Below are positions 2,897 to 48,545 of a DNA stretch of 64,000 nt, piece by piece. The stretch covers positions 103,582 through 167,581 of the forward strand of contig CAXBYW010000002.1 in NCBI GenBank assembly GCA_963980225.1, in the 5' to 3' direction. The notes beneath the pieces were generated by a model that saw nothing but the letters and a program-made list of their open reading frames with translations, searched no databases and was not told the origin of the DNA. The position numbers and the translations under genes were made by a program. Within the stretch, counting starts at the first letter, position 1. Every line of letters begins with the position of its first letter. The stretch is from an uncultured bacterium (GTDB lineage Bacteria > Patescibacteriota > Microgenomatia > UBA1400 > MFAQ01).

Positions 2897-3945
2897 ACGC
2901 AGAACAATTGTTGAAAAATGTGGTTGATACAAAGTCTTCTGATTTACATTTGATCTTTGGGGTCTCACCCATGGTTAGAACACAGGGTAAGTTGACAGTA
3001 ATTCCAGGAACAGAAAAGTTGACTAAAGAGACGGTGAAGGCACTGGTTTTGTCTTTGATGAGACCTGACCAACAGAAAGTTTTTTTGAAGGAAAAAGAGC
3101 TTGATTTCTCAGTAGATTTACCAGGGCTGGCAAGATTTAGGGTAAACACATATTTTCAAAGGGGCACAATGGCTGCCGCATTGAGACACGTTCCTAGTAA
3201 AATACTTTCTATAGATGAGTTGGGGTTACCACCTGTTTGCCACTCTATTGCAAAGCTAAAACAAGGATTTGTGTTAGTAACCGGCCCGACTGGTTCTGGA
3301 AAAAGTTCTACCTTGGCAGCTATTATTGATGAGATAAATCAGACAAGATCAGAGCATGTTGTGACGGTTGAGGATCCGGTTGAGTTTGTGTTTGAGAATA
3401 AAAAATCGGTTATCTCTCAGCGTGAGTTGGGTGGAGATACAATGAGTTGGGAAAAAGCTTTAAAATCAGTCTTAAGACAAGACCCAGATGTAGTGTTAGT
3501 GGGAGAGATGAGGGACCTGGAAACTATGCAAGCGGCCATCACCACAGCAGAGACTGGTCACTTAGTACTTGCGACTTTACATACCAATTCAGCTGCACAA
3601 ACGATTGATAGACTTGTCGACAGCTTCCCTGCTGGACAGCAGTCTCAGATAAGATCTCAGTTAGCGGGTTCTTTAGAGGTGGTGCTTTCACAGAGACTGA
3701 TCCCTTCGATTGATGGGAAAAGAGCGGTGGCAACGGAAGTGATGGTGGTGACTCCAGCGGTGAAGACGAATATAAGAGAGGGTAAGGTTCATCAGATTGA
3801 TAACATAATCCAGACAGGATCAGAGATGGGTATGCACTTACTTGAGACCAGTCTGATTGAGCTGGTAAATAAAGGGGTTATTGATAGCAAGGTGGCACTA
3901 GCCTACTCCTTAAGACCCACAATACTAGCCAGACTTCTCCAGTAA
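2893..3945 (+). CDS. pilT: twitching-motility retraction ATPase PilT
   Basis: GPTGSGKSST Walker A, VLVGEMRDLET, 350 aa; overlaps pilB stop. Confidence 0.9.
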   Translation: MNAEQLLKNVVDTKSSDLHLIFGVSPMVRTQGKLTVIPGTEKLTKETVKALVLSLMRPDQQKVFLKEKELDFSVDLPGLARFRVNTYFQRGTMAAALRHVPSKILSIDELGLPPVCHSIAKLKQGFVLVTGPTGSGKSSTLAAIIDEINQTRSEHVVTVEDPVEFVFENKKSVISQRELGGDTMSWEKALKSVLRQDPDVVLVGEMRDLETMQAAITTAETGHLVLATLHTNSAAQTIDRLVDSFPAGQQSQIRSQLAGSLEVVLSQRLIPSIDGKRAVATEVMVVTPAVKTNIREGKVHQIDNIIQTGSEMGMHLLETSLIELVNKGVIDSKVALAYSLRPTILARLLQ

Positions 3946-5198: not shown

Positions 5199-5744
5199 AT
5201 GAAAAAACAAACTGGTTTCACATTAATGGAGCTTTTGATAGTTATTGGAGTGTTGGGAATCCTAGCGGCTGGTTTGTTGGCAGCTATTGACCCGTTTGAG
5301 CAGCTAAAGAAGGCTAGAGATGCAAATAATAGGAATGCTTCGGTTGAGCTTTTGAACGGATTCACTAGATACTATGCATCTCATGGAGAGTTTCCTTGGA
5401 ACTTACCAGGTATAAACGTTGGCTGTGATGCCCTTGTTGATACAGTGCCAGGTGCGGCTGCTGGTGGAGTTACCGAGTTGCAGGATATTGGTGACTGTGT
5501 TGCTGCTATTGAAGCTGATGGTGAGTTAAAAAGCGACTTTAATAGTAATGTGAATGCAAATATTTACGTAAGCTCAGAGGATGAAACTGACGTAGCAGTC
5601 TGCTTTGCCCCAGAAGGTAAAGCATTAAGAAATGATGCGACCACCAAGTGGGTATTTGATGGTGTTGCTACGATTACGGAAGACGTTGGAGCTGTTACAT
5701 GTCCTGACGTTACCAACGGAAACTGCTTGCAGTGCTTTAGATAG
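5199..5744 (+). CDS. type IV (pseudo)pilin, probable major pilin
   Basis: class III signal MKKQTGFTLMELLIVIGVLG, Glu+5, C-terminal Cys pair. Confidence 0.8.
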   Translation: MKKQTGFTLMELLIVIGVLGILAAGLLAAIDPFEQLKKARDANNRNASVELLNGFTRYYASHGEFPWNLPGINVGCDALVDTVPGAAAGGVTELQDIGDCVAAIEADGELKSDFNSNVNANIYVSSEDETDVAVCFAPEGKALRNDATTKWVFDGVATITEDVGAVTCPDVTNGNCLQCFR

Positions 5745-6557: not shown

Positions 6558-7054
6558 TTAGTATGAGGAAAGGATTCACTTTACTTGAGATAATGGTGGC
6601 GGTAGCGATTATGATAATTATCTCTGGTGCTAGTTTGGCCTCTTTTACTTTTAGTCAACGTAAGTCTAGGGATGCAAGAAGGAAAGGTGATTTAAGCCAG
6701 ATATCTAAGGCCTTGCAAGTATTCAATGAGGACTTTGGTAGATATCCTATTGGAGATAGTGGTAATGTAATCGGTTGCAAACCAAGCGCTGTGGCAGAGT
6801 TGGAGGCATGCATTTGGGGAGACACCTTTAGTGCGTATTCAGGAGGCGTAGAACAACTATATATGTCTAAGTTACCAGAAGACCCTAAGGTGGGTTATGC
6901 GTATTATTACGTGAGTGACGGAGATAATTTTAGCTTGTATGCAATACTTGAGAACGATAAGGATAAGGATTATAGAACGGACTTGACTCAAGAGTGTGTC
7001 ACTGGTGTAACATGTAATTATCTGTTAACAGAGTATGGAGTGGAAATAGAATGA
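6554..7054 (+). CDS. pilin-like protein (class III signal)
   Basis: [17 protein letters not shown]; start set at ATG overlapping pilD TGA (ATGA); track ORF starts 6512. Confidence 0.7.
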
Positions 7055-7476: not shown

Positions 7477-7898
7477 AAAACAAAAAAAGAGGGTTTACAT
7501 TATTAGAGTTGTTGGTGGTGATTGGGATAATCGGAGTTTTGGTCGCTTTGGGTACGGTGTCTTACTCTAGTGCCCAGAGAAAGTCTCGGGATTCAAGACG
7601 TCAAGCTGATATGAAATCGATCCAGAATGCGTTGGAGGTATATTACTCTGAGACGAGTTATGTCTACCCTACTACCTGCAGTGATGGAGGTAGTTACATA
7701 AAAGGTCCTTGGCCAACAGATCCAGTGGATGTCTCCCCGTTGGTTTACACAGAGCTTTGTGATGCAGATAGCTATTATGTATGTGCTGAGATGGAAGTAG
7801 CCTCTAGGGGTAATTCCACGAGCTTACCTACGACTGCTGATGGTACATCGCATGTATGGGGTGCAGGCAATTATTACTGTGTAAGTAACTTACAATGA
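7473..7898 (+). CDS. pilin-like protein
   Basis: [23 protein letters not shown]; start at ATGA overlap; track ORF starts 7437. Confidence 0.7.
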
Positions 7899-8272
7899 AT
7901 AACAAGCTTTTCTCTTCTGGAAAACGAGGATTTACGTTCGTGGAGCTTCTGGTGGTAATTACTATTATTGCTATCTTGACTGGAGCGGCAGCGGTGTCTT
8001 TTACAAATACTAGTATTCGATCTAGAGATTCTCGGAGAAAGTTAGATATCGAGAACATCAGGTCGGCATTAGAACTTTGTAGGACTGAGTCCGGTAGTTA
8101 TCCCCCATCGATTTATAACAGTATTAGTTGTGGTGGTGAGACATATTTAAATGACACCCCCAAAGATCCTAAGACTGATGCTACGTATACTTATGGATTT
8201 GTGTCGGCCACTTCCTACACCATTACTTGTGTGTTGGAGAGTGGTGACAGTTGTTCGTTTATCAATCCATGA
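7895..8272 (+). CDS. pilin-like protein
   Basis: KRGFTFVELLVVITIIAIL; ATGA overlap. Confidence 0.75.
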   Translation: MNNKLFSSGKRGFTFVELLVVITIIAILTGAAAVSFTNTSIRSRDSRRKLDIENIRSALELCRTESGSYPPSIYNSISCGGETYLNDTPKDPKTDATYTYGFVSATSYTITCVLESGDSCSFINP

Positions 8273-8751
8273 AAAATCGATTGGGATTTACTTTATTAGA
8301 AGTTGTGATCGTGATTGGGATCTTATCGTTGTTTGTGGGTGCAGGAATAGTTGCGCTTGTCCCCTTTAGAGAAAGAAGAGAGGTTTTAGGTGACGCTAGA
8401 AATATGGCTTCTCTTTTGAAGCAAGTTCAAGTTAAAGCAAGTGCTGTTGAAATACCGTCTGATTGTGAAATCAGTGGAGTTAGTGAGTTTGAACTACAGT
8501 TTTCTGGTGCGGATGTAGATTTGTTGGTAAAAACATCAAGTGGAGCTACTTGCAAGCAAACTTTAGGTGTTTTAAATCTTTCTAATGGAACCGAGTTTGT
8601 CTTTGCCGGGCAGGTAGTGTTTATTACTCCTTTTGGTTCAACTGATTCAAGCACGATAAGTGTTTGTAATTATGGAATCCAGTATGATCTGGAAATAAAT
8701 GAAAATGGTAGTATTTCTGAGCCGGTAAAGTCAGCGACTCCTGGATGTTAG
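8269..8751 (+). CDS. pilin-like protein
   Basis: MKNRLGFTLLEVVIVIGIL; ATGA overlap; track ORF starts 8251. Confidence 0.7.
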   Translation: MKNRLGFTLLEVVIVIGILSLFVGAGIVALVPFRERREVLGDARNMASLLKQVQVKASAVEIPSDCEISGVSEFELQFSGADVDLLVKTSSGATCKQTLGVLNLSNGTEFVFAGQVVFITPFGSTDSSTISVCNYGIQYDLEINENGSISEPVKSATPGC

Positions 8752-27382: not shown

Positions 27383-27459
27383 GGTGGATGTAGCTCAGTT
27401 GGTTAGAGCGCCTCTCTGTGGCAGAGGAGGTCGGGGGTTCGAATCCCCTCATCCACCCA
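27383..27459 (+). tRNA. tRNA-His (GTG) with G-1
   Basis: ggtggatgtagctcagttggttagagc, anticodon loop ctGTGgc, extra 5' G. Confidence 0.85.
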
Positions 27460-27502
27460 AAGTAGTGATATAGATTGATATACCGTGATATACCGTGATA
27501 TA
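27459..27502 (+). repeat. direct repeat A copy 1 (tRNA-His 3' flank, with internal tandem ccgtgatata)
   Basis: aaagtagtgatatagattgatataccgtgatataccgtgatata; near-identical copy at 28442. Confidence 0.7.
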
Positions 27503-27571
27503 TTCTATTTTATTTCTCTTCTATCAGTTCACTCGAACTTTAAATCTCTTTTCCCAGGTTTTCTAGTTCAC

Positions 27572-28237
27572 TTATTTAAGCTTACTTTCCCACTCATTAA
27601 AAAAATCTTCTAGAAAATCCTCCATAATTTTATGTCTTTTATTAGCTAGATCAATTCCCGTCTTTGTGTTCATGTTTTCCCTCAACTTAAGAAGTTTTTC
27701 ATAAAAATGGGCAATTGTAGAGGTTCTGTGATTTGGGTCATCAATAAAATCCTTATCATATTCAAGATTTTCGCCTGGATTATATAAAGATAGGCCGTGG
27801 GAACCTCCAAATGCAAATGTTCTAGCAATTCCAATAGCTCCAATTGCATCAAGGTTATCTGCATCTTGAACTATTTTTAATTCTAAAGTCTTGTCTCCAA
27901 TTTTATTAGTCCAGTCATAAATATCGTGTAATTCAACTACTTTAATAATAGGAACAATCTTTGAACTTGAAATCTTAGATTTTTTCAGCACCTCTCTAAT
28001 AATTTCCAGGGCTTCTGGTCCAAAATGAGATTTTCCTGTTTTTTTCTCCCACGGTCTACAGATATCGTGCACTAATGATGCCGCCCCAACCACTACACCA
28101 TCTCCACCTTCTTTTTTTACTAGATACTTAGAAACATTAAAAACCCGCTCAGCATGATAATAATCATGTCCACTAGACTCACTTTCCAAGAATTTCTTAA
28201 CCCTCTTTGATAGCTCGCTAAATTTACTCTCAATCAT
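27572..28237 (-). CDS. HD-domain phosphohydrolase
   Basis: H..HDYYHAERV, LVHDI, QDADNLDA metal-binding motifs. Confidence 0.8.
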   Translation of the reverse strand: MIESKFSELSKRVKKFLESESSGHDYYHAERVFNVSKYLVKKEGGDGVVVGAASLVHDICRPWEKKTGKSHFGPEALEIIREVLKKSKISSSKIVPIIKVVELHDIYDWTNKIGDKTLELKIVQDADNLDAIGAIGIARTFAFGGSHGLSLYNPGENLEYDKDFIDDPNHRTSTIAHFYEKLLKLRENMNTKTGIDLANKRHKIMEDFLEDFFNEWESKLK

Positions 28238-28383
28238 ATTCTGAATTATATACCAAGCAAAAAAGGTTCGTGTTACCTCTAGAGTTGTTTTTGAAGAGTC
28301 CGATCTATGCTCGCCTGTTAAGCCCTTAGATCCTATTCTGCATTTTAAAAGACATATTCTTTCTTGAGACCTTTCAAGGCTAC

Positions 28384-28441
28384 GTGTCTGCCTAGATAGT
28401 TAGTATAGTAATTAGTCCGAACATCGTTGCATAAGGGACCC
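28384..28441 (+). repeat. cassette-junction repeat R copy 1
   Basis: gtgtctgcctagatagttagtatagtaattagtccgaacatcgttgcataagggaccc; four direct copies at 28.4-31.2 kb. Confidence 0.7.
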
Positions 28442-28475
28442 AAAGTAATGATATAGATTGATATATCGTGATATA
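28442..28475 (+). repeat. direct repeat A copy 2
   Basis: aaagtaatgatatagattgatatatcgtgatata matches tRNA-His flank. Confidence 0.7.
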
Positions 28476-28507
28476 TTTTATTTAACCCCCTTTCATCAGC
28501 ATTTTTT

Positions 28508-28555
28508 ATGCATATTCTGACCACTCCCCTGTCACGGAAGAGATTGTGCGTAATT
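28508..28555 (+). repeat. intergenic repeat family 2, copy a
   Basis: catattctgaccactcccctgtcacggaagagattgtg; similar copy at 29786. Confidence 0.5.
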
Positions 28556-28567
28556 AAGAGTGTCTCC

Positions 28568-29713
28568 CTATTCGACTATAATTGCGTCTTTTTTCAATAG
28601 AGCATTCCAATCGTTTATTTTCCCTTGACCCAACCCATCCTTCCTTAATAATAATTCATGAGCCTCAATCGAAACTACTTTAGCGTGTGGAGTATTTTTA
28701 CTAACCCATTGCTTCAATTTATCGAGATATATTTGCTCACAGTAAATTACATCTACAAGATCCAAAGGTATCTCAGGACCCAACCTGATTCCTTCCCCGG
28801 CCCAATTTATAAATGCAGTATCTGACTTTTCATCAATCTCCTTAAGGTGTTTTCTAGTTCTCTCCTCAGCAATACCAAATGCTAAAGGATACTCATTGAA
28901 CCACCTTGCGATAGCGTAACCAGTGTGTAATGAACGAGATACATGAACATCGCCAAGACCCTGTTTTCTCCCGCTTACGGAATGATTGTCATGACCAATA
29001 TATGTATTATATTCTCCGGTCTTTACTTCTTCTTCTCTCTTGATTGCCTCCCGAGCACTCAAGATTGCCTTTTGCTTAGAGATACCATCAAGTGTCGCAG
29101 AGCCAGTTGTGTGATATAGGCCGGGCTTCATATAGCCAGACTCTTTTAAGTCGATAATTTCTTTCAACAAACCCAGCTCAATATATTCCACTCCAGACCA
29201 ACGCTTATGCTCCAGTGGTACCCAAGCACCTTCATGTTTGTAAATACCCATTTCATAAAACCCCTTCATTCTATGTCCTTCGGGCCATGCCTTCATTATT
29301 CTTTTTGGATGTACGACAATTTGGATGAACCTATCCACCCTTTGCATAAAATTACCAAGTGTCTTTCTGTCAACTCCTTTGGCAAATACTGAAATAAAGG
29401 ACTCAAAGTCCTTCAGTTGAGCCGAAAGCTCGTAAAACTCTGAAGACGCGTCAACATTCTTTGTGGCTTCGTAACATTGATAAACAAAGTCAATCTGAGA
29501 GTTAAGTTCATCATCGATTATGGACGCATTTTCTTTACAGTGCGCAAAGATTCCCTTAAGTTTGTCCGAAAGTAGGTCGGGTAATTCTTCCGGAGTAACT
29601 CCCTCTGTTTTGCATATATCGTCTGCCGAAGGAGCCTTTATTTTCCTCAAACTACTAATCAATAGGTCTCGTTCACTATTTGGTTGTATGTATCTATTTT
29701 CAAAATCACTCAC
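28568..29713 (-). CDS. hypothetical protein (cassette gene)
   Basis: 381-aa ORF bounded by R repeats; no confident domain. Confidence 0.55.
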   Translation of the reverse strand: MSDFENRYIQPNSERDLLISSLRKIKAPSADDICKTEGVTPEELPDLLSDKLKGIFAHCKENASIIDDELNSQIDFVYQCYEATKNVDASSEFYELSAQLKDFESFISVFAKGVDRKTLGNFMQRVDRFIQIVVHPKRIMKAWPEGHRMKGFYEMGIYKHEGAWVPLEHKRWSGVEYIELGLLKEIIDLKESGYMKPGLYHTTGSATLDGISKQKAILSAREAIKREEEVKTGEYNTYIGHDNHSVSGRKQGLGDVHVSRSLHTGYAIARWFNEYPLAFGIAEERTRKHLKEIDEKSDTAFINWAGEGIRLGPEIPLDLVDVIYCEQIYLDKLKQWVSKNTPHAKVVSIEAHELLLRKDGLGQGKINDWNALLKKDAIIVE

Positions 29714-29785
29714 AGTCTCAATTATATACGCAATTCTTCAACCCCTCAATATTTTCTTGTAAAGTGTAATTAATAGCATCTCTTA

Positions 29786-29835
29786 TACATATTCAGACCA
29801 CTCCTCTGTCATGGAAAAAGTTGAGTGTTTGAATT
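29786..29835 (+). repeat. intergenic repeat family 2, copy b
   Basis: catattcagaccactcctctgtcatggaaaaagttgag. Confidence 0.5.
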
Positions 29836-29877
29836 CCATCAGCGCCTGTAGCTGTTCTTGAAGCTCGTCAACAGTAA

Positions 29878-29935
29878 GTGTTTCTGCAAGTAGTTAGCTT
29901 GGTAATTAGTTCGAACATCGTTGCATAAGGGACCC
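29878..29935 (+). repeat. repeat R copy 2
   Basis: gtgtttctgcaagtagttagcttggtaattagttcgaacatcgttgcataagggaccc. Confidence 0.7.
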
Positions 29936-30049
29936 TAGAGTCCTATAGTTTGACTTTTACTGATATATTTGGTAAAATATAATCCTGGTTTAAACACTCG
30001 TAGTAGTACATTTACAGCTTAAATATATAGATCCTAGGAGGACCTACCC

Positions 30050-30535
30050 ATGACAACGATTAGTTTAGTTGGTCTAGACAAAGCAGCTGTACTTGCTGCG
30101 TTATACAATGTTGCCAAACCGCAAGGTATGGGCTTCATGCATTATGATCCTGCTCCAATGACTTATGATCAGGCGAAAGCCATATTGGAGGGAGGACAAA
30201 CCGATTTTGATTATCTTAAAGGAAGAGTTATGAAAATAAATCTTTCTGGTGATGATCTCGATGTCTGGGGGTTTGATCGTAATAATGGAGAAGGTGTAGC
30301 GAAAGCTGCTATTGACTCCATTGAAGAAACTTCCAATGTAAATAACTCCCTAATTCAGAAGATACACTCTGATAATACTTTTTTATCTGCAGTTGATACT
30401 GAAAGCCATCTTGGCGACAAGTCAACCGTCTCTGAAGAAGGTGACTTTGTGCATATGGAATTAGGTCTTGATGATGTCAAAGATGTTTTAGGCCCAAAAG
30501 TCAGGGATGCTAAAGAACATCAAAGTTCAAAATAA
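30050..30535 (+). CDS. hypothetical protein (cassette gene)
   Basis: 161-aa ORF, own terminator. Confidence 0.5.
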   Translation: MTTISLVGLDKAAVLAALYNVAKPQGMGFMHYDPAPMTYDQAKAILEGGQTDFDYLKGRVMKINLSGDDLDVWGFDRNNGEGVAKAAIDSIEETSNVNNSLIQKIHSDNTFLSAVDTESHLGDKSTVSEEGDFVHMELGLDDVKDVLGPKVRDAKEHQSSK

Positions 30536-30555
30536 CTATATTTAAAATGCTGTAC

Positions 30556-30588
30556 CCACTGATCCCATAAGAACTCAGTGGTTTTTTT
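30556..30588 (+). terminator. rho-independent terminator
   Basis: ccactga...tcagtgg stem followed by ttttttt. Confidence 0.6.
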
Positions 30589-30647
30589 ATTGTCTAAGTA
30601 GTTAAATAAAAATTTCGAACGTCGTTTCGTATACCTCGTAACTGTAG

Positions 30648-30706
30648 GTGTCTCTGTCTATATTTAGCCTCGTAATTAGTCCGAACATCATTGCATAAGG
30701 GACTCT
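30648..30706 (+). repeat. repeat R copy 3
   Basis: gtgtctctgtctatatttagcctcgtaattagtccgaacatcattgcataagggactc. Confidence 0.7.
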
Positions 30707-30781
30707 CGATTTGAAAAATACCTGTATGTAAGTTTTATTATGCTTTACTGTGTGAATGTTTTAAGATCTTTCTTTCAAAGA

Positions 30782-31093
30782 TTAATAGGACTCCACTACA
30801 CTTTTGCTTTCTGTGCACTCGAAACAGAAAAAAACGTAAATCATTCCTACATCACCAAACATATATTCTTGCTTATCTGAATCATTTTCGAATGAGTCAA
30901 TTTGAGCAATAAAGCTCATTTCCTTTTTACATGATGGACAGCTTTCATTATTGTCAGAACCTCCTTGTGTTTGTATCCAATCTGGTTTGCCACCAAGCTT
31001 AGTTTTTTGTCCTAACTTCTTTGAATCTGAGTCGATTGCAGAGTCTTCTGCTTTTTCAAGTGTAACTTTGTACTGTTGAAGTGTTTTAACCAT
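30782..31093 (-). CDS. zinc-ribbon protein (cassette gene)
   Basis: CPSCKK...CFECTE tetracysteine, 103 aa. Confidence 0.5.
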   Translation of the reverse strand: MVKTLQQYKVTLEKAEDSAIDSDSKKLGQKTKLGGKPDWIQTQGGSDNNESCPSCKKEMSFIAQIDSFENDSDKQEYMFGDVGMIYVFFCFECTESKSVVESY

Positions 31094-31181
31094 ATGTTAA
31101 ATTATATCAAGTATTAAATAAAAAGTTCGGATTAAACTAGAAAATTAGCATAATTTTGCTTAAAATGCTTTAATTCGATAT

Positions 31182-31236
31182 GTTTCCCGATATATTGAGC
31201 ATGGTAATTAGTCCGAACATCATTGCATAAGGGCCC
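31182..31236 (+). repeat. repeat R copy 4
   Basis: gtttcccgatatattgagcatggtaattagtccgaacatcattgcataagggccc. Confidence 0.7.
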
Positions 31237-31314
31237 ACTTACTTGATATAGTTTGGTATATCAGCATATTCTCTCTATTTATTTTCTGGTTTTCGTTCAG
31301 TGTAGAATATTGGT

Positions 31315-32103
31315 ATGGAAGAGTCTACTCTCGAGCCTTTAACAAAAACTAGATTGACCTCTTTAAGGGGAAAGTGGTCTAAGCCTGATAGGGATAAAGG
31401 ACGCACTTGGGAATTTGATGGCGTGCCTTATTCTCCAGAACATTTCATGAGCTATAACCATGAAATGAGAGAGGGATTGAGTGATTATGACTGTAAAACT
31501 TTTGATGAATTGGTGACTATTTTAGAGAAAAAATTAGGTAGAAAGCCAGATGTTATTGATTTAATGGGAGGGGCGTATTTTTTAAGTGAACCAGGGAATG
31601 TAAATACATTAGTGGCTATAAGAGTGCATGATAAGGACAAGGAGTTTATTGAAGTCGCTAATGAAAAAGATGGTAAGGAGTCTCGTTTGATTAAGAAGGT
31701 TACAGGTGCATCTAATAGGCGTGTTATTGATGCGGATGTGTTGACAACCAAAGGCTGGAAAGATATCGAGAAGGCTGGCTTGCCAAAGGCTGACTTGTTG
31801 GTATGTCGTCCAGTTGGACCGTTTGACGTTAAACATGCTATGGATAGTAGGTGGGATGAACCAGGGGCATATGTAGGATTGTATGCTTCGTTGTTTGGGC
31901 GTATGTTAAGGTTGGTAAATAAAAAAGATGGGGTGATTTTTACTGAAGTTCCAGACATTTATACCGAAAAAGAGGTTAAGAAATTCTTTGTAGGAGTTGA
32001 TGAAAAAGAGGGTTCACAGACTGAGGTGTTCACTGTGCCTGATAAGGATTATCATTGGGGTGGAAGAAAAAGAAGATATGCAGTTATTGAATTTACTAAA
32101 TAG
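31315..32103 (+). CDS. hypothetical protein, possible Rossmann-like fold
   Basis: 262-aa ORF; VIDLMGG weakly resembles SAM-methyltransferase motif I. Confidence 0.45.
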   Translation: MEESTLEPLTKTRLTSLRGKWSKPDRDKGRTWEFDGVPYSPEHFMSYNHEMREGLSDYDCKTFDELVTILEKKLGRKPDVIDLMGGAYFLSEPGNVNTLVAIRVHDKDKEFIEVANEKDGKESRLIKKVTGASNRRVIDADVLTTKGWKDIEKAGLPKADLLVCRPVGPFDVKHAMDSRWDEPGAYVGLYASLFGRMLRLVNKKDGVIFTEVPDIYTEKEVKKFFVGVDEKEGSQTEVFTVPDKDYHWGGRKRRYAVIEFTK

Positions 32104-33775
32104 TTAGAAACTGATATTCTGGTTGTCGGTTGAACTGATAAATAAAGATTTTCATCTCGTCTAGCGAATAATCAAATTCAGTCTTTTGGTTGCGGAATGT
32201 GTCCAGTAATCCACCCATTACCGACAAAGTTTTTGAGTTCATGCCTGAGCTGGGCACGACTTGAGAGTTCGGACCGAGCCTCTTTATGTTAGAGAATAAT
32301 TTATCTGGCTTTATGTGTAGTTTTCTGTCTTCATGGATAATATCTGCTCCTACAATAGACAGGAGCGTTCGTTTGGTATCAATGTCCCCTGTTTTCCATA
32401 GAGTTTGAGCGTTACAAGAGAAGTTGAATACGTCAATCAGGTAATCAGTCCATTTGTCATGAGCTTTATCTTCCTTCTTTAGCTGGTTGGCTAGTTTAAC
32501 TTTACCTATTACATACTTCTGCTTAAGCTGCCTGTATTCATCATTAGTTAAGAAACTCCTATCTTCGTTCATGGGAGAAAGCCATTGCTCAGTAAGGTTA
32601 TCTATTGTCTTTGTAATTCGCTCATGTTCTCTTTTAATTGATTCTCTTGTCTTGTCTCGGACTGTCTTATCCTGTTCTTCCATCTTTCTAACCCATTTAG
32701 TTGCAAACTTAACAAAGCTTTTTTTCAGTTTTATTTGACCGAGAAAGTTGGTTACTTGCTCTTCTAATTTGGGAGATGAAATCATGGGTTGACTGCATCC
32801 TTTATTACCATGCTTGGTGCACCTGTAATAGGAATATGTCTTTCCAGACTTTTTAGTGTGTGTTTCTCCCGATAGTTGATAACCGCATTTACATTTAATG
32901 AATCCTGTTAAAGGGAAGTCGTGAGATTTACCTCTGGGTTTAGACTTTATTGCTAACTTTTCTTGCACTAGATTAAACTCATCATCGGTTACCATTACCT
33001 TATGGATACCCTGATGGAGAGTCCTTGAATACAAGAACCGACCAGTATAAAAAGGGTTTCTTAGGATCTTGTACATCTGAGTTCGAGAGACTAGTTTGTC
33101 TCTGGAGTTTCGGATTCCCATTTCTTGTGCTTTCTTGGCTAGGGCATCTGTTGAGAAGTTCCCTGTCATTGCTAGTTCGAAGATTTTTCTGATAAGGTCG
33201 AATGAAATTGGATCAGGTGAAATAGTTTTCTCTCCCTGTGTCATATGTTTATCGTTTACATAGCCTACTGGAGCAAGTACAGGAGCCAAGCCCTTATCCA
33301 CCTTTGCTTGTAGGCCTCTCTTGGTGTCCTCTCTAAGGTCTCTGATGAAGCGTTGAGCCTGACTACCTTCAACCGCCAGGATGAAGTCGCTGTCGTCTGC
33401 TGTGTATGTCTTGGTGGGAGTAACAATCTCTTTGATTGTGCCATCATAGAGGAGTTGTCTAATCATTCCTTCGTCTTGGGGATTTCTGAATAGTCTGTTT
33501 GGCTTCCAACAAACAATACCTTTAATATCTTTTTCGTTTAAGGTATGAACCATGTTGTTAAATTCTGGACGACCAGGTTTTTTTGCTGATTTACTCTCAG
33601 TGAATGTATCTGATATCGTGAGATCTTTTGATTGGATAATATCTTTTAGTGCAGCTAGTTGGCTTTCAACGGAAGCAACCTGTCTATCTTCACTCTCGGT
33701 AGATTTCCTAACGTATATAACGTAATCCTGACTTTGCGCTTTCATCTTCTCTGGCTTATATTTACTTAACTTCAT
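32096..33775 (-). CDS. large serine recombinase (resolvase/invertase catalytic domain plus zinc-ribbon and coiled-coil C-terminus)
   Basis: N-terminal YVRKSTESEDRQ..SVESQ catalytic Ser region, C..C zinc ribbon, 559 aa. Confidence 0.85.
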   Translation of the reverse strand: MKLSKYKPEKMKAQSQDYVIYVRKSTESEDRQVASVESQLAALKDIIQSKDLTISDTFTESKSAKKPGRPEFNNMVHTLNEKDIKGIVCWKPNRLFRNPQDEGMIRQLLYDGTIKEIVTPTKTYTADDSDFILAVEGSQAQRFIRDLREDTKRGLQAKVDKGLAPVLAPVGYVNDKHMTQGEKTISPDPISFDLIRKIFELAMTGNFSTDALAKKAQEMGIRNSRDKLVSRTQMYKILRNPFYTGRFLYSRTLHQGIHKVMVTDDEFNLVQEKLAIKSKPRGKSHDFPLTGFIKCKCGYQLSGETHTKKSGKTYSYYRCTKHGNKGCSQPMISSPKLEEQVTNFLGQIKLKKSFVKFATKWVRKMEEQDKTVRDKTRESIKREHERITKTIDNLTEQWLSPMNEDRSFLTNDEYRQLKQKYVIGKVKLANQLKKEDKAHDKWTDYLIDVFNFSCNAQTLWKTGDIDTKRTLLSIVGADIIHEDRKLHIKPDKLFSNIKRLGPNSQVVPSSGMNSKTLSVMGGLLDTFRNQKTEFDYSLDEMKIFIYQFNRQPEYQFLTI

Positions 33776-33975
33776 GATATCTTATTTGGATTAATTGTTG
33801 GTGGTGGAATTTTCTTAAACTCTTTGAATAACAAGATTAATCCATTGGCTTTTTGAGTTGCATCTTCTGTATTTAGGATTTCTCCATATTCCCTGCGGTA
33901 GATTTTGATAAATTCAGTGATAGCATTTTTTGGTAGCATTTTATTTTTTTGTAAATACATCCACTGCATCCTCAT
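33772..33975 (-). CDS. small hypothetical protein upstream of recombinase
   Basis: 67 aa, overlaps recombinase start by 4 nt. Confidence 0.35.
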   Translation of the reverse strand: MRMQWMYLQKNKMLPKNAITEFIKIYRREYGEILNTEDATQKANGLILLFKEFKKIPPPTINPNKIS

Positions 33976-35239
33976 AGGTTTTGTAATTCAAGCTTGTTTG
34001 TTCGGGAGAATCTAACTCCTTTTCCTTGTAAATTTCTGTTTCCGAATTGAAATCTAATCTAATTAAGTTGCTTCCTTTGGCCTCTGCTGAATCTCTGTCT
34101 GAATCAATGATGATTGCCACCTTGCTATTGAGATGTGATTGATCAAATTTTTGCAAGGGACGCCAAAAAAGAATTACTTTGTCGAATTGAGAACTGAATC
34201 CTCCACCACCATAAATGTCTTTAGTTGATGGGCGCAACATGATGACAGCTGGCCGATCAAACATCTCTTCTTCTCTGCCAGTAGCAATTAACTCGTTTAA
34301 ACCCTCTGCTTTTTCATTCCATGCAACATTAGAAGGGATGGTGTGCGCAACTACGATTACGGCTGACTCTAGAGTCTTAGTGAGGCTAACCATCTGCTGA
34401 CCGACCTTAGCTGCTGTCTTCCAGTTGCCTTGGTTTTTGAATACTGTAATATTGTCCACAATAATGACCTTGCAACCTTCCTCAGACTGATTTTTAATGC
34501 TCCCTAATACTTTTTCAGCATCTACTAATCCATCAGTCATGAGTTCTCCTGAGTCTGTCCCTGCATAAACCATGTTTTTAATGATCTTGGATCTAAGCTC
34601 TCTAGCAACTTCAAGTTTGTCCCTAGTAACTCCATTCATTTTGGCTAGTTTCCTGGCTATTTGTTTAAGAGTGAGTTCGGTCGAGGTGATTTTTTTAGCC
34701 TGGTCATTTTTTTTGGGATCACTATCGTAAACACCGTCAACAGTACTCGCTTTAAGAATTAAATCACAAGCTAGTTCGCTGGCAAATTGGGCTACTGCAG
34801 AGTCAGTAGAAAAACCAGGCTTACCTAATCCACCCGCCAAGATTACTAGACGGTCTTCATCAAGGTGATGTTTTGCCTTTAGTCTGATATATGGCTCGGC
34901 TAGTTCTGGTATGTGAATCGTGGTCATTAACCTGGTGTCTTTAGCCCCGTTTCTTATAAAAGCCTCCCTTAAGGCAATGCCGTTAATTATTGTAGCCATC
35001 ATTCCCATAGAATCGGCCTCGTTTGAGTCAACGTATTCAGATTTTTCTCTACCACGAAAGATATTACCCCCACCAACCACCATCGCTAGTTGTATGCCTG
35101 TGTTCTTTACGATCTCAATTATTTGTTTGGCTACTGCATCATAACGAGAGAAGCTAATATCATCTTCCTTATTGGAAAATAGTTCTCCGCTAACTTTGAC
35201 AATGTATCTACTTGAATTCCTTTCTGTTTCCGGCATCAA
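33941..35239 (-). CDS. fusion protein: UMP-kinase (PyrH, amino-acid-kinase fold) N-terminal domain plus degenerate DnaB-C/RecA-like C-terminal domain
   Basis: IVKVSGELF, VVGGGNIFRG, MGMMATIINGIAL, ILAGGLGKPGFSTDSAVAQFASE match PyrH; C-terminal half VIIVDNITVF...VVAHT...GREEEMFDRPAVIMLRP matches DnaB C-terminal Walker B/H4 but has no P-loop lysine. Confidence 0.7.
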   Translation of the reverse strand: MMPETERNSSRYIVKVSGELFSNKEDDISFSRYDAVAKQIIEIVKNTGIQLAMVVGGGNIFRGREKSEYVDSNEADSMGMMATIINGIALREAFIRNGAKDTRLMTTIHIPELAEPYIRLKAKHHLDEDRLVILAGGLGKPGFSTDSAVAQFASELACDLILKASTVDGVYDSDPKKNDQAKKITSTELTLKQIARKLAKMNGVTRDKLEVARELRSKIIKNMVYAGTDSGELMTDGLVDAEKVLGSIKNQSEEGCKVIIVDNITVFKNQGNWKTAAKVGQQMVSLTKTLESAVIVVAHTIPSNVAWNEKAEGLNELIATGREEEMFDRPAVIMLRPSTKDIYGGGGFSSQFDKVILFWRPLQKFDQSHLNSKVAIIIDSDRDSAEAKGSNLIRLDFNSETEIYKEKELDSPEQTSLNYKTYEDAVDVFTKK

Positions 35240-35333: not shown

Positions 35334-35407
35334 GGGTCTGTAGCTCAGCTGGTTAGAGCGTCTGCCTCTTAAGCAGAATGTCGTGGGTTCGAGTCCCACC
35401 AGACCCA
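35334..35407 (+). tRNA. tRNA-Lys (CTT)
   Basis: gggtctgtagctcagctggttagagc, anticodon loop ctCTTaa. Confidence 0.85.
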
Positions 35408-37140
35408 CACACGCGCCCGTAGCTCAGTGGATTAGAGCATTTCGCTTCGGACGAAAGGGTCGGGGGTTCGAGTCCCTCCGGGCGCACCATATCTACTTTC
35501 TTTCCGATCTTGATCTCTTTTAGACTGAAGATGCCGTCTAAATTAGGTGTTCCAGAAACTAAGTTTTCATAAGTCGGTATTTCTTCGAATAATAGACCGA
35601 AAAGAACCCCTTTTTGTTGTGGATCAGGCTCGTTTCTTATCAATTTATCTGGGTGTTCCATAAAATAAATATAAAGGTTAATAGTTTCTTCGATATCTAC
35701 CTGCTCGTCTTCTCTTTTATCTCTTTGTTGCTTTGCTTGTGCAATATTAAGTTCTATCTTATTGATTTCATCCTCTACTTTTTTCATCATAATCTTACCA
35801 GTTACAATTGGTACTTTGTCTAGCCAAGCTTGCTGTTCTCCTTGAAGTCTAATTACGTTTTTTCCGTAGTCTATTGCTTCCTGTTGAGCTTCTTTTTGTT
35901 TTTTCTTCCATGTGTCTAATACAACACCTTTAAATAATCTTAAAAAATCTTTATCAAATTTAACTGATTCAAGGAATGAATAAATTTGATCGTGAAGTTT
36001 CTGTCTAGGGACACCCCAATATTTATGGTTTCTATCACAATGGTATGTTGGAAACTTTTTGCCTGATTTGCCCTTGGGGCTACTTGCCAATAAAGGTTTG
36101 TTGCATAGTTCACATCTTACGTGATTTTTAAATGGAAATAGAGGGTTGTGTCGACTTCTTACTTGTTCTTTGACATTGAGCTTTACTTCTAAGTGGTTAT
36201 TAGGAAGCTCCAGAATGACGACCTTGCCCCTATTAGCTCTGTTAAAGGTATCAATAGACACCAATCCTTTATATTGGGTTCTAACAGGTTTAGGTTTTGT
36301 CCAAGTCTCGTGAATGACCCCAGCGTATTCAGTTTGCTGTATGAATCTTTGTAGCTGCTTAACCCCTAACGGTTTGCCTATTATTTTTCCTATTGGTGTC
36401 TTTTTGCCAGTAGATGATTCACCCCATCTCACTCTGTCCCTGTTTTTAAAACCTAAACGATTGATTCTTTTAACGATCTGTTTGTCATTTAAGGTTGTAT
36501 TTACCCTTAAGTTAAACATTTTTTTAATCCACTTAACTTCTTCTGGATGAGGAGTGCGAACAACTCTAATACCATCAACCTTAGTTGCTATTTTTTCGTT
36601 TACAAAACCAAAAGGTGCGTTCCTGACTGCATAACCCTTTTGGCGATAACTAATTTCAGCCCCAATCATTCTTGTTAGGATGTCTGACACTTCTCGTTCC
36701 GCTCTGTTGGCTTCCATCAGCTCAGCTTGTTCAGAAGGATTTATGACACTCCATGAGTACTTAAGTCCTAGATGATCAAGAGTATTTATTTCTTCACCAA
36801 TCACCTGATAAGTGTCGATCAATTTAACTCCATATTTTCTAATTTGCTTTTTTAGTTCTTTGTATCCAATAATTCCGTGTCTGCTGAAACGATCTATGCT
36901 CTTGATAATTAAGAAGTCTATATTTGAATGCGACTTAAGGTATTCACAAATGTCGTCTATATAACTCACTCCGACTTTTGTTGAACTGTGTACATATTCA
37001 AATGTTTCTATTATGTTCCAATTCTGCCTCTGAGCAAATCTTTCACATTGTATTTTTTGATCTCCAAGCGTTTCTCCTTGCTGAAATTGTCTGTCTGTTG
37101 AGATCCTAACTAGAATGATGGCGTTTTTCTGGTCATTCAT
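35353..37140 (-). CDS. large serine recombinase; ORF 3' end runs through tRNA-Arg/tRNA-Lys, true stop uncertain
   Basis: N-terminal ILVRISTDRQ catalytic region, C..C zinc ribbon; last ~45 codons are antisense of the tRNA genes. Confidence 0.8.
   Translation of the reverse strand: MNDQKNAIILVRISTDRQFQQGETLGDQKIQCERFAQRQNWNIIETFEYVHSSTKVGVSYIDDICEYLKSHSNIDFLIIKSIDRFSRHGIIGYKELKKQIRKYGVKLIDTYQVIGEEINTLDHLGLKYSWSVINPSEQAELMEANRAEREVSDILTRMIGAEISYRQKGYAVRNAPFGFVNEKIATKVDGIRVVRTPHPEEVKWIKKMFNLRVNTTLNDKQIVKRINRLGFKNRDRVRWGESSTGKKTPIGKIIGKPLGVKQLQRFIQQTEYAGVIHETWTKPKPVRTQYKGLVSIDTFNRANRGKVVILELPNNHLEVKLNVKEQVRSRHNPLFPFKNHVRCELCNKPLLASSPKGKSGKKFPTYHCDRNHKYWGVPRQKLHDQIYSFLESVKFDKDFLRLFKGVVLDTWKKKQKEAQQEAIDYGKNVIRLQGEQQAWLDKVPIVTGKIMMKKVEDEINKIELNIAQAKQQRDKREDEQVDIEETINLYIYFMEHPDKLIRNEPDPQQKGVLFGLLFEEIPTYENLVSGTPNLDGIFSLKEIKIGKKVDMVRPEGLEPPTLSSEAKCSNPLSYGRVCGSGGTRTHDILLKRQTL
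35413..35489 (+). tRNA. tRNA-Arg (TCG)
   Basis: gcgcccgtagctcagtggattagagc, anticodon loop ctTCGga, encoded CCA. Confidence 0.85.
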
Positions 37141-46499: not shown

Positions 46500-47795
46500 A
46501 TGAAGTTAGATATAAATAAACAGTTTGAAGATGTTTTGGAGGTTTTAGAAAGTACTAACCATCATGTGTTCTTAACGGGTAAAGCAGGAACGGGCAAGTC
46601 TACTCTGCTAGATTTGTTTCGTGAGAAAACCGCTAAGCAAATAGCGGTAGTTGCTCCGACAGGGGTGGCGGCGGTGAATGTAAAGGGTGAGACGATTCAT
46701 TCTTTTTTTGGTTTTAGACCGGGCACCACCTTGGTACAAGCCAAAAGACTGGCTGGTAGGACCAAAAACAAGAAGCTGTATAACTCGCTTGAGACACTGG
46801 TGATTGACGAGATCTCTATGGTCAGGGCAGATCTTTTGGACATGATAAATGTGTTTTTGCAGGCGGTGCGGGGAGATAATAGTGTGTTTGGTGGAGTACA
46901 GGTGGTGATGGTGGGAGACATGCACCAGTTGCCCCCGGTGGTTACTAGAGAGGATGCAGAGAGTTTGGACATGATGTATGACACACCCTATTTCTTCTCG
47001 TCTGAAGCAGTATCTCAGATCGGTCAGGATTTTTTCCAGCCTCTGAAATTTATGGAATTGGAGAAGATTTATAGACAGGAAGATGAGAAGTTTATCTCTC
47101 TTTTAAATGATGTTCGAGAAAACAATATAGATGAAAAAAAACTGTCTAGCTTGCAAGTCTTGGAGGATGGTTGGGAACACATAAAAGACCATGTAATCTT
47201 AACGGCGGTTAACTATGTAGCTGACAAGATTAACCAACAAAGACTAGCTCAGATAAAAAGTGAACCAAAAACATACATGGCCAGTTTATCTGGTGAGTTT
47301 GATGGTAAGAGACTGCCAACCGATGAAAAACTAATTTTAAAGGAAGGTGCGAGAATTATGATGCTTAATAATGATGACCAAGGTCGATGGATAAACGGGA
47401 CCATGGGAACAGTGAGTAAACTGAAACGGTCTGCAGTAGATGTAGATCTTGATGATGGAGAGACTTATGAAGTTACTCCTTTTACTTGGAGCATGTATAA
47501 GTCGGTTTATGATGAGAAGAAGGGGGTGATAAGAAAGGAAGAGAAAGGATCTTTAACTCAGCTACCGATTAGACTGGCTTGGGCAATTACGGTACATAAA
47601 AGCCAGGGTAAGACTTTTGACAAAGTAATTATTGATCTAAGTCGGGGAATGTTTGCTCACGGCCAGGCCTATGTGGCTTTGTCACGATGCACGACCCTAT
47701 CTGGAGTGAAACTTACTCAGCCAATGGAGAAAAGACATGTGATTATGGATGATAGAGTAGTAAAGTTTGTGGAGAGGATAAGAAAAGAGAAATAG
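46500..47795 (+). CDS. Pif1/RecD-family 5'-3' DNA helicase
   Basis: LTGKAGTGKSTLL Walker A, VIDEISMV Walker B, C-terminal SH3/2B region, 431 aa. Confidence 0.7.
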   Translation: MKLDINKQFEDVLEVLESTNHHVFLTGKAGTGKSTLLDLFREKTAKQIAVVAPTGVAAVNVKGETIHSFFGFRPGTTLVQAKRLAGRTKNKKLYNSLETLVIDEISMVRADLLDMINVFLQAVRGDNSVFGGVQVVMVGDMHQLPPVVTREDAESLDMMYDTPYFFSSEAVSQIGQDFFQPLKFMELEKIYRQEDEKFISLLNDVRENNIDEKKLSSLQVLEDGWEHIKDHVILTAVNYVADKINQQRLAQIKSEPKTYMASLSGEFDGKRLPTDEKLILKEGARIMMLNNDDQGRWINGTMGTVSKLKRSAVDVDLDDGETYEVTPFTWSMYKSVYDEKKGVIRKEEKGSLTQLPIRLAWAITVHKSQGKTFDKVIIDLSRGMFAHGQAYVALSRCTTLSGVKLTQPMEKRHVIMDDRVVKFVERIRKEK

Positions 47796-47813
47796 GATAA
47801 AATATAGGCATAA

Positions 47814-47887
47814 GCGGGTGTCGTATACCGGTATTACCTCAGCTTTCCAAGCTGATGAAGGGGGTTCGACTCCCCCCACCCGCTCCA
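47814..47887 (+). tRNA. tRNA-Gly (TCC), unusual D-arm
   Basis: acceptor gcgggtg/cacccgc, anticodon loop ttTCCaa, T-arm ggggttcgactcccc, CCA. Confidence 0.7.
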
Positions 47888-48545
47888 TATCGGACTGCAT
47901 TTCCAAAAGTGCTCTTTTAGTCCGATCTGTGGGCATATTTTTCGGTTCGAGCCGTTGTTTTTTCTCATTCATACTTTTTTCAATCTTCTTGAGATAGATG
48001 AACGCGTTTTTCGCGTCGATTCGGACAATTCTGTCTTTTAAGATAAGGTTCGAGCCAAGAATGCGTAACACCATACGTTTAGCTTCTGTATCCTCTTTAT
48101 GAAATATTTTTGTTACGTTTGAAGCAAAGGCTAAGATCTCTTCCATTGTTTTTGCCCACCCTCCTAGATTATCGGAAGCAATCTGGTTTTTTGTCTGATG
48201 TTCTTCTCGAAGAAGCCGCTCCTTCTCTTTTTGGTAGTCTTCTTCCGTAACTAAATTTTCAATTTTCATTCCGTATAATTGTTTTTTTTCAACAAGAATG
48301 GCATCTAAGCGTTTCGTAAGCTTTGCTTTCTGGTTCCTCTCAAATTCAAATTCACGCGCATTTCTGCGTTTAAGATTTTTCCTGACCCACTGAATAAAAG
48401 AAGGTTTAATTTCTAGGCTATTAATGAAGACATCTACTTGTTTCTTTAATTCAATAGCATTGAGATATTGTTGACCACAAGGTCCCTTTTTTTTGACACA
48501 GCGAGCCCTACAAAAGATGATTTTAGAAGAATTAGACCTAGATCA
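47888..48545 (-). pseudogene. 3' remnant of a large serine recombinase gene (zinc-ribbon/coiled-coil C-terminal region only) abutting tRNA-Gly
   Basis: in-frame hand translation CGQQYLNAIELKKQVDVFINSLEIKPSFIQWVRKNL...MVLRILGSNLILKDRIVRIDAKNAFIYLKKI parallels the C-terminal halves of both intact recombinases in this window; no catalytic domain and no upstream start; ORF tail is antisense of the tRNA. Confidence 0.6.

Follow-up and report, generated by a model that had tools for sequence, protein, structure and literature searches.

How does a row of single genes come to stand between a tRNA gene and a recombinase gene, each gene parted from the next by a copy of the same short repeat? The question is raised by a 64,000-nt stretch of DNA from an uncultured bacterium of the Patescibacteriota (assembly GCA_963980225.1, contig CAXBYW010000002.1, positions 103,582 to 167,581), referred to here as the window and numbered from its first letter. 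Between 27.4 and 32.2 kb, starting at tRNA-His(GTG), it holds five units and six sites, all in direct orientation. The repeat, R, appears from sequence comparison to be the P arm, that is the element-side left half-site, of an attP belonging to a Patescibacterial family of large serine recombinases (LSRs) that integrates at the 3' ends of tRNA genes. Our preferred reading, to which we give a probability of roughly two in three, is that mini-cassettes without an LSR of their own were accreted serially at tRNA-His by LSR-mediated insertion, with R as the P arm.

The order across the locus is tRNA-His/F1, a gene for an HD-domain protein, R1/F2, a 381-aa gene, R2/F3, a 161-aa gene, R3/F4, a 103-aa gene, R4/F5, a 262-aa gene, Q/L with the LSR gene, and an open reading frame (ORF) of 67 aa. 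A slash marks a junction between two arms, or the crossover point within a site. The half-sites and right arms of the array are as follows.

27384 to 27458, plus strand: tRNA-His(GTG), found by ARAGORN and Rfam; its 3' part is the putative host-side (B-type) left half-site, with GTTCGAAT at 27437-27444 (positions 12-19) and the crossover A/C placed at 27455/27456
27456 to 27540, plus strand: F1, right arm after tRNA-His, with 10-bp-periodic TGATATA repeats and a sigma-70-like promoter (27475-27504) reading into the cassette
28351 to 28441, plus strand: R1, candidate P-type half-site, with GTCCGAAC at 28415-28422 (positions 17-24) and crossover A/C at 28438/28439
28439 to 28510, plus strand: F2, right arm, 95% identical to F1 over 38 nt
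29848 to 29935, plus strand: R2, candidate P-type half-site, crossover 29932/29933
29933 to 29985, plus strand: F3, degenerate F arm that precedes cargo 3 and has a promoter-like motif at 29950-29983
30617 to 30705, plus strand: R3, candidate P-type half-site, crossover 30702/30703, core mutated to ACTC
After R3: F4, an arm not recognisably F
31149 to 31237, plus strand: R4, candidate P-type half-site, core GGGCCCA, the A left of the crossover lost
31235 to 31300, plus strand: F5, right arm of the F type that precedes cargo 5 and has a promoter-like motif at 31243-31272

When the 64-kb window was searched for the 30-nt core of R, GTAATTAGTCCGAACATCRTTGCATAAGGG, four copies were returned, all on the plus strand (28408, 29902, 30672 and 31204) and each with at most one mismatch, where none was expected in 100 shuffles. 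Each gap between the five cargo genes contains one copy, irrespective of gene orientation. An earlier interpretation of this DNA from its letters alone (the sequence-only reading) had described R as a 58-nt element in every intergenic gap, with four direct copies starting at 28384, 29878, 30648 and 31182. Those starts agree with our coordinates as starts of the 58-nt version, and placement and direct plus-strand orientation hold for all four copies. The length does not: upstream of the core the repeat reaches about 88 nt at 68-73% identity (family D1), and R measures about 90-110 nt.

The last 4 nt of tRNA-His and 33 nt of its 3' flank (27455-27492) recur at 28438-28475, directly after R1, with 95% identity, which bears out the recurrence of the flank behind the HD gene in the sequence-only reading. 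That reading also placed a degenerate gatatag...tgatata tract after each R. Degenerate copies of the flank do follow R2 and R4, as the close copy follows R1, and after R3 it is barely recognisable. This tract, F, would be the right arm of the same recombination site, carrying a promoter-like motif. It is a conserved non-coding arm of about 70 nt, found also in three related contigs (L018, L020 and L021). The motif TTGATA-N16-18-(TG)TATATT occurs at 27475-27504, 28448-28477, 29950-29983 and 31243-31272, facing away from the tRNA; to judge by its position it could drive the plus-strand cargo (161 and 262 aa), and it is antisense to the remaining cargo. An origin of F as a remnant of an LSR 3' end was considered and dropped, as its reverse translation (...NRIYHDISIYIITLG) holds stops and bears no likeness to LSR C-termini.

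The R repeat and the attachment sites of tRNA-targeting recombinases

The array ends on a site and a recombinase gene that overlap.

32096 to 32240, plus strand: Q/L, intact attP-like site in the 3' end of the LSR gene; the motif of its P arm Q, GTTGCGGAAT, lies at 32189-32198
32096 to 33775, minus strand: LSR of 559 aa (LSR1), with Pfam domains Resolvase PF00239, Recombinase PF07508 and Zn_ribbon_recom PF13408, and a match to phrog_95 integrase

The catalytic motif of this LSR is intact, R23-K24-S25 being invariant in the family alignment (A6). Q/L shows clear dyad symmetry (GTCCAGTAAT-CCACCC-ATTACCGAC at 32201-32225), and its centre, TCCACCCA (32210-32217), is identical to the 3' end of tRNA-His. 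In the R/F sites, unlike Q/L, dyad symmetry is weak or absent.

The assignment of R rests on the spacing within the left arms. Alignment A4 set tRNA-His beside four P arms, namely R1, the window Q, a Q-like copy from L018 and the attP of the free element L030, and in every one of them five extra nucleotides separate the GTTCGAA-like motif from CCACCC. Counted from the A/C of the shared core, GTYCGAAC occupies positions 17-24 in R1-R4, in a diverged copy (R') from L020, in the L018 variants and in the L030 attP; in Q the motif lies at 16-25, and in tRNA-His GTTCGAAT lies at 12-19. In serine integrases the zinc-ribbon-domain (ZD) motif is found at 16-24 in attP and at 11-19 in attB (PMC3783163). 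The 5-bp offset of the outer motif is thus present in the left arms tested here, and because it equals the published attP/attB rule we assign R to the P type and tRNA-His to the B type. The (A)CCC core is common to tRNA-His, R1, R2, Q/L, the L030 attP and the L020 and L049 junctions, R3 having ACTC and R4 GCCC. From these comparisons the status of R as a P-type half-site seems to us well established.

L030 is a tRNA-free, phage-like contig carrying the LSR P0083, whose gene 3' end includes attP; as L030 is an unintegrated element, the end of the P0083 gene contains the attP. The P arm of L030, GTAGTAGGTTCGAACTTCATCCGGTAAGTCACCCCA, is colinear with R (GGTAATTAGTTCGAACATCGTTGCATAAGGGACCCCA), 24 of 36 positions being identical. 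In elements that carry an LSR, the P arm has a second role in that it also encodes the C-terminal tail of the recombinase. The window LSR matches its closest relatives up to ...KTLSVMGG and then continues with a tail of 40 aa, its last 40 codons, which come from arm Q. Such tails are rare: 73 of its 120 nearest homologues end x-G-[GDE] and about 17 read through an antisense tRNA (RRDLNPQ...ALPLSY), while only four, P0083 among them, have P-arm tails, which begin L.D.[FV]R[TN].

The behaviour of the family likewise points firmly to tRNA genes as its targets. In a sister species (L022-24) and in L034-37 the orthologous LSR ORF stops inside tRNA-His (...LSLMGE or ...SLVGE, then stop), in prophage-like contexts with DnaB-like and terminase-like genes. 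The LSR gene of the sister species abuts tRNA-His directly, at the position of the window array. One IMG/VR contig has the same arrangement of an LSR ending in tRNA-His, and L048 is among the closest homologues that end inside this tRNA; the window LSR itself has no match in IMG/VR.

An exact scan for the R pattern found it in four metagenome contigs (L018-L021), with no occurrence in GTDB representative genomes or IMG/VR. Counted by fuzzy search, the arrays in these contigs comprise two to six arms in a single orientation, spaced about 0.6-2.3 kb where the arms are intact. There are five R-type copies and one orphan Q-type copy on one strand of L018 (1.1-2.3 kb apart), two R copies each in L019 (582 nt apart) and L021 (693 nt apart), and in L020 a canonical R, the diverged R' and a truncated copy about 3.5 kb out. 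The L020 array begins at tRNA-His, and the tRNA-Arg/Pro/His cluster to which this gene belongs is shared with the window. Contigs L018 and L019 end within an R copy, as assemblers do at repeats. No two arrays have the same cargo. In the related arrays it includes HicAB-like genes, a cupin, an NlpC/P60-like protein, an ABC ATPase and two 372-aa paralogues, all unlike the cargo of the window, for which no homologues were found in the related loci.

Behind several P arms in L018 and L019, a second arm type with a hairpin, AAAGGATTTTAGGCATAAAAAATGCC, takes the place of F (for example L019 915-960; L018 at about 5960, 7600 and 11480). Because the right-arm type co-varies with the R variant (CCATACTCCACCC or CTGGACCC) in these two contigs, the comparison suggests two subfamilies of sites. 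Within the L018 array, a 259-aa ORF (7851-8630, plus strand) contains about 30 tandem 21-nt (7-aa) repeats and has the look of a coiled coil or lipoprotein. In the sister species, contig L023 holds a different intergenic repeat family with a strong GC hairpin (GGCCCTCTCTGCC...GGCAGAGAGAGGG) at 3032-3217, 5520-5561 and 6842-7026. These repeats part the genes for RhuM, DHH, Fic and DUF2130 from one another. The accessory block concerned, 7.4 kb in size, lies between tRNA-Arg(TCT) and a 195-aa core gene and may be another array of the cassette type.

Insertion at tRNA-His and the competing explanations

Set side by side, contigs L049 and L020 present the 3' end of tRNA-His once empty and once occupied, and so demonstrate cleanly that insertion there is site-specific. 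In L049 an Rsm22 gene (288-1364) abuts tRNA-His (1353-1429) with an overlap of 12 nt; the empty junction reads ...CATTCACCCCA/ATCTTGACAGG, and the Rsm22 protein ends ...DWGE followed by a stop. L020 is 96-97% identical to L049 on both flanks and has 1,846 nt inserted exactly at this junction. The insert consists of two units, F-star-HicB-HicA-R' and F-159aa-cupin-R (F-star being a variant F arm), and the resulting junctions are tRNA-His/F-star and R/M. The inserted units thus carry their own F arms, and the native right arm M, the Rsm22 3' end, is joined to the outermost R. By analogy with R/M, the outermost P arm of the window, Q, would be joined to L, the 3' end of the resident LSR gene. Precise insertion at the junction in a relative, which this pair shows, the anatomy of the sites and the behaviour of the LSR family all speak for the serial site-specific insertion, linked to serine recombinases, that the sequence-only reading had proposed.

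The same pair accounts for a peptide encoded by R. Read on the reverse strand, all copies encode (W)GPLCNDVRTNYQAQYMQKHL... and then a stop, and in L020 (2529-3710) the GPLCNDVRTNYQAQYMQKHL peptide forms the C-terminus of an intact 393-aa ORF of the Rsm22 family, whose last 37 residues come from the R arm. All R copies match only residues 357-394 of this ORF, and within the protein's 90% cluster some members are 358 aa long, with ...CQDWGE or ...CQDWGS as their last residues. What R adds to Rsm22 as a 'tail' thus comes from fusion at the junction: the protein has 393 aa in L020 or 358 aa in L049 according to the sequence across the tRNA-His junction. The LSR gained its 40 residues in like manner, with 559 aa in the window against about 522 aa. 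C-termini at such junctions depend on the neighbouring element.

The forward strand of R contains a 16-codon mini-ORF (MFLHILSLVISPNIVA, then a stop) at 28384-28434, with equivalents in the other copies. It is open in R2-R4 and in several copies elsewhere and is broken in R1 and in L018_8773. We set it aside as a gene, given its interruption in two copies and a synonymous excess that mirrors the reverse frame; constraint on the opposite strand probably produced the mini-ORF as a side effect.

The proposed course of events would begin with an LSR prophage that integrated at tRNA-His and decayed to the LSR and the 67-aa ORF, giving tRNA-His/L as in the sister species. Mini-elements lacking an LSR, with the circular junction R/F, would then have been inserted one by one at the tRNA-proximal junction, the LSR acting in trans. 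Every insertion would remake a tRNA-His/F target and move the prior R/F site outward. Because each insertion would leave tRNA-His/F, the same form as the target, the target would be re-usable and the newest cassette would adjoin the tRNA; the best-preserved right arms are F1 and F2, which fits this order. Each interval would represent a small cassette composed of an F arm with its promoter, one gene and an R arm. Predicted circle junctions are R_i/F1, for example GCATAAGGGACCCAAAGTAGTGATATAGATTGATATACCG, and Q/F1, CCAGTAATCCACCCAAAGTAGTGATATAG; predicted deletion junctions are tRNA-His/L, CCTCATCCACCCATTACCGACAAAG, and tRNA-His/F3, F4 or F5. The resident LSR as catalyst, the order of insertion and the circular intermediates are what we infer.

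Sites of the same form could have arisen in another way. Several full-size LSR prophages or elements might have integrated at tRNA-His on separate occasions, each decaying to the single moron gene beside its attR and leaving an R/F site as its attR scar, with no dedicated family of mini-cassettes. We consider this history unlikely, and it has some evidence to its credit. R/F does have the attR form, a P arm joined to a tRNA-His-type flank, but integration by an LSR puts the recombinase gene beside the tRNA (tRNA/L) and not an F arm. The LSRs of the family are prophage-borne, and R-type and Q-type arms are mixed in L018; yet no remnants of LSR genes were found between the sites, and every window unit opens with the conserved F of about 70 nt, with cargo directly behind it. 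It would be unparsimonious for five elements to have decayed independently, each to exactly one gene and with precise F ends, and in L020, set against L049, the native right arm is an Rsm22 3' end while the inserted units brought F arms with them. The synonymous excess described next suggests divergence of the R copies as translated LSR tails in different elements and also counts in favour of scars.

Several points weigh against accretion of mini-cassettes. Compared by profile, R tails and LSR tails are similar over the first 10 residues only (WGPLCNDVRT against MGGLLDTFRN, P=0.0076), a stretch that is the half-site itself, and a profile search covering 5.8 billion proteins, GTDB representative genomes and IMG/VR returned no LSR with a full R-type tail. 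Synonymous changes among R copies in the reverse frame amount to 0.49 against 0.21 expected. This suggests that the copies diverged while translated, a history more in keeping with scars of different LSR elements than with a single family of non-coding mini-elements; the complementary forward frame has a similar excess, leaving the coding strand ambiguous. Under canonical LSR rules an attL (tRNA/P') is no substrate, and re-insertion would need F, L and M all to be acceptable. What the right arms F, F-star, L and M have in common is a TGAYA motif at about +9 to +15, the sole backing for their interchange, and motif offsets in the right arms F, G, L and M are 4, 7 and 8 bp, where the P' and B' classes would differ by 5.

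The stability of the array belongs with these points. Attachment sites of attB-like and attP-like form flank it in direct orientation, so that its deletion would be expected if the integrase were active, yet the array is stable; perhaps the enzyme is silent or the sites are inactive, or an inverse logic may apply. Identical proteins occur on many marine metagenome contigs, with DUF5660, DUF5665 and a short trigger factor as flanking genes, which fit an origin in Patescibacteria, and among the 22-23 contigs of this species in each look-up, drawn from several projects, there was no gain, loss or reordering of cassettes. Because of this, cassette activity may be ancient. In the comparison of strains suggested by the sequence-only reading, the order is identical within the species and unit content varies between species or contigs only.

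A wider claim can be made for the accretion of mini-cassettes, and for now we would call it doubtful. It holds that Patescibacteria possess a serine-recombinase gene-cassette platform analogous to the integron, in which a resident LSR of prophage origin captures LSR-less, promoter-bearing mini-cassettes at tRNA-His, stacks them and possibly shuffles them. If this is true, then with the array placed between an attB-like and an attP-like site in direct orientation, the 'integrative' reaction (attB x attP), which needs integrase alone, would release it in whole or in part, and the 'excisive' reaction (attL x attR) would bring it into tRNA sites that a prophage occupies. Such logic inverts that of a prophage and would make the array a hitchhiker on lysogenised tRNA sites.

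The peptide on the reverse strand of R could also be taken to mean that R is the displaced 3' end of a host Rsm22-like methyltransferase gene, each island bringing a replacement gene end. The C-terminus of the intact 393-aa ORF in L020 invites this view, and we dropped it once the cluster mates proved to end at residue 358 (...DWGE or ...DWGS, then stop), the ...DWGE gene abutting tRNA-His. The window contains no Rsm22 body, the Rsm22 Pfam domain stops before the tail, and R is colinear with the LSR attP arms; we regard a host origin as very improbable.

Equally little probability attaches to R as a generic intergenic repeat, such as a miniature inverted-repeat transposable element (MITE) or a repetitive extragenic palindrome (REP), or as a small structured RNA or regulatory element without a tie to recombination. 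R is short, intergenic and repeated, and the adjoining F tract has its promoter-like motif. Its four copies in the window, however, are all at this locus and in one orientation whatever the direction of the genes, and in other contigs R occurs only in same-orientation arrays. Rfam gave nothing at R at gathering or permissive thresholds, its matches elsewhere being tRNAs and chance-level hits; RNAalifold over 13 R copies gave no conserved pairs. R therefore appears not to be a structured RNA, and it is probably not a MITE. A decayed 3' half of tRNA-His was likewise rejected as its source, the likeness being confined to GGT..GTTCGAA..CCACCC with a 5-nt offset and no T-stem; we read this likeness as half-site mimicry.

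A true integron, or another tyrosine-recombinase cassette system with its integrase outside the window, would also give compact single-gene cassettes parted by a conserved recombination-site-like repeat, but it is hardly credible here, as no Phage_integrase-family gene is recorded in the Pfam lists within 10 kb on either side of the array (in keeping with the missing integron integrase of the sequence-only reading), R has no attC-type hairpin symmetry, no inverted-repeat pair has both arms inside one R copy, the cassettes are in mixed orientation and the site geometry is that of serine integrases.

Cargo genes and neighbouring elements

Five cargo genes and two copies of a further repeat make up the remainder of the array, and a small ORF lies directly upstream of the LSR gene.

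27572 to 28237, minus strand: cargo 1, HD-domain phosphohydrolase of 221 aa (Pfam HD, 4e-8; phrog_3921)
28498 to 28551, plus strand: D4a, first copy of a 54-nt direct repeat that flanks cargo 2
28568 to 29713, minus strand: cargo 2, 381-aa protein, function not assigned
29775 to 29828, plus strand: D4b, second copy of the 54-nt direct repeat, 80% identical to D4a
30050 to 30535, plus strand: cargo 3, 161-aa protein, function not assigned
30782 to 31093, minus strand: cargo 4, 103-aa protein, DUF1963 fragment-like (Pfam DUF1963, 5e-5)
31315 to 32103, plus strand: cargo 5, 262-aa protein, function not assigned (weak PADLOC mad2 match)
33772 to 33975, minus strand: 67-aa ORF directly upstream of the LSR gene, with a homologue upstream of LSR P0040 in L033

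Cargo 1 matches an NCBIfam phosphohydrolase model at 1e-27, under the curated cut-off. Cargo 2 has no match in Pfam, NCBIfam, PADLOC, PHROGs or PDB sequences, and for the cargo as a whole PADLOC, NCBIfam and PDB gave nothing beyond the HD domain save the weak mad2 match of cargo 5. The second repeat family that the sequence-only reading had placed at 28508 and 29786 is real; it corresponds to D4, which brackets the 381-aa gene and was not found in the other loci examined. One insertion nested within another may account for the D4 repeats, or they may form a second family of sites.

ORFs of 60, 57 and 48 aa take the same place upstream of the LSR gene in L034, L037 and L030 as the 67-aa ORF does in the window. 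By its position and homology the 67-aa ORF appears to be a conserved partner of the family's LSRs, possibly a directionality factor or regulator. No P-arm arrays were found beside LSR P0040 in L033. The start of the 67-aa ORF is overlapped by a 432-aa ORF (33941-35239, minus strand), of which the first 234 residues are UMP kinase (pyrH) and the rest an extension of about 200 aa; it may be a fusion from prophage decay.

Two further LSRs of the window lie at tRNA genes. LSR2, an ORF of 595 aa (35353-37140, minus strand; ...KVDMVRPEGLEPPT...), reads antisense through tRNA-Arg(TCG) (35413-35489, plus strand) and tRNA-Lys (35334-35408), and it has the appearance of an LSR element that entered at the 3' end of tRNA-Arg; no attR was located for its far end. 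The third is a C-terminal remnant, represented by an ORF at 47697-48269 (minus strand) with similarity continuing to 48542, which matches residues 305-500 of LSR1. The remnant ORF ends ...MERVGGVEPPSSAWKAEV..., the antisense of tRNA-Gly(TCC) at 47814-47887 (plus strand), and is a decayed LSR element at a third tRNA. A P-arm-like regular-expression match at 48047 falls within this remnant and was discarded. Because two more LSR events at tRNA 3' ends are present in the same 64-kb window, tRNA-targeting LSR elements are a general feature of this genome.

Comparison with known systems

Patescibacteria (the candidate phyla radiation, CPR) have tiny genomes, and little is known of how they gain accessory genes; the locus would represent one concrete route. 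It also presents tRNA 3' ends as landing pads for a large phage-borne LSR family, with three such events in 64 kb. The site grammar, an ACCC core with a T-loop-like GTTCGAA at 12-19 or 17-24, supplies natural attB/attP pairs for an uncharacterised LSR clade of possible use in genome engineering, and it is a sequence signature by which arrays can be found in metagenomes, where contigs break at them. Annotators should take care, as ORFs abutting such junctions gain C-termini that depend on the junction.

Canonical serine integrases (A118/LI, Bxb1, phiC31; PMC3783163) share with this locus the 5-bp motif shift, the short core and a dyad attP beside the integrase gene. They leave one attL and one attR, and attL is not re-used, whereas the locus has stacked P arms and seemingly interchangeable F, L and M arms.

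In staphylococci, the cassette chromosome elements (SCCmec and composite SCC) use Ccr LSRs to insert at the 3' end of a conserved gene, orfX/rlmH, and form tandem cassettes, some of which have no recombinase. They are 20-60 kb in size with repeats of about 15-18 bp, the target is protein-coding, and the recombinases are the CcrAB pair or CcrC. SCCmec and the present cassettes are alike in being bounded by repeated integration-site sequence and in rewriting the last codons of a target gene (compare the tails of Rsm22 and the LSR), and SCCmec composites work by the same logic of accretion. Among integrative and conjugative elements (ICEs), integrative mobilisable elements (IMEs) and cis-mobilisable elements (CIMEs), which use tyrosine recombinases, non-autonomous att-flanked elements pile up beside an integrase-bearing element and are mobilised in cis or in trans. 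These differ from the present locus in recombinase class, site architecture and element size.

Mobile integrons resemble the locus as compact arrays of single-gene cassettes, each with a conserved recombination site, next to a recombinase gene. They differ in that the locus has no IntI and no hairpin attC, its cassettes are in mixed orientation, and each has its own promoter-like F arm in place of a common Pc. The description of the array as integron-like is apt for the outcome and fails for the sites and the recombinase; the nearest systems are tandem islands driven by LSRs.

Such islands, the ssrA genomic islands (ssrA-GIs) of Dehalococcoides, were described by McMurdie et al. 2011 (PMC3146451), who proposed the same logic of serial accretion. 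In both systems islands stand in tandem downstream of a small RNA gene with same-orientation repeats at each junction, and a large serine recombinase (CcrB-like in Dehalococcoides) lies beside the RNA gene and reads towards it (PMC3146451). About half of the Dehalococcoides islands have no integration module and were interpreted as cis-mobilisable or accreted, and a conserved motif that does not align with the RNA gene lies upstream of each repeat (PMC3146451). By analogy, this motif would be the equivalent of the P arm. The differences are several. The target is tRNA-His in the window and tmRNA in Dehalococcoides. Crossover here coincides with the 3' terminus of the RNA gene; the repeated right arm is accordingly the downstream flank F and not gene sequence. 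The left arm, likewise repeated, is a long one of about 90-110 nt and comes from the coding tail of a recombinase, unlike in the ssrA-GIs. Units here measure about 0.5-1.5 kb with one gene each, and in the related contigs up to about 2.3 kb with two genes, far below the ssrA-GIs. The host phylum is Patescibacteria, and a second small recombinase (DsiA/CcrA-like) was not seen here.

We therefore regard the locus not as a categorically new system but as tandem accretion driven by LSRs, in a compact form and in a new lineage. What most sets it apart is a half-site that mimics the T-loop of the tRNA, shifted by the canonical 5 bp, and doubles as the coding tail of the abutting gene, together with cassettes of integron size.

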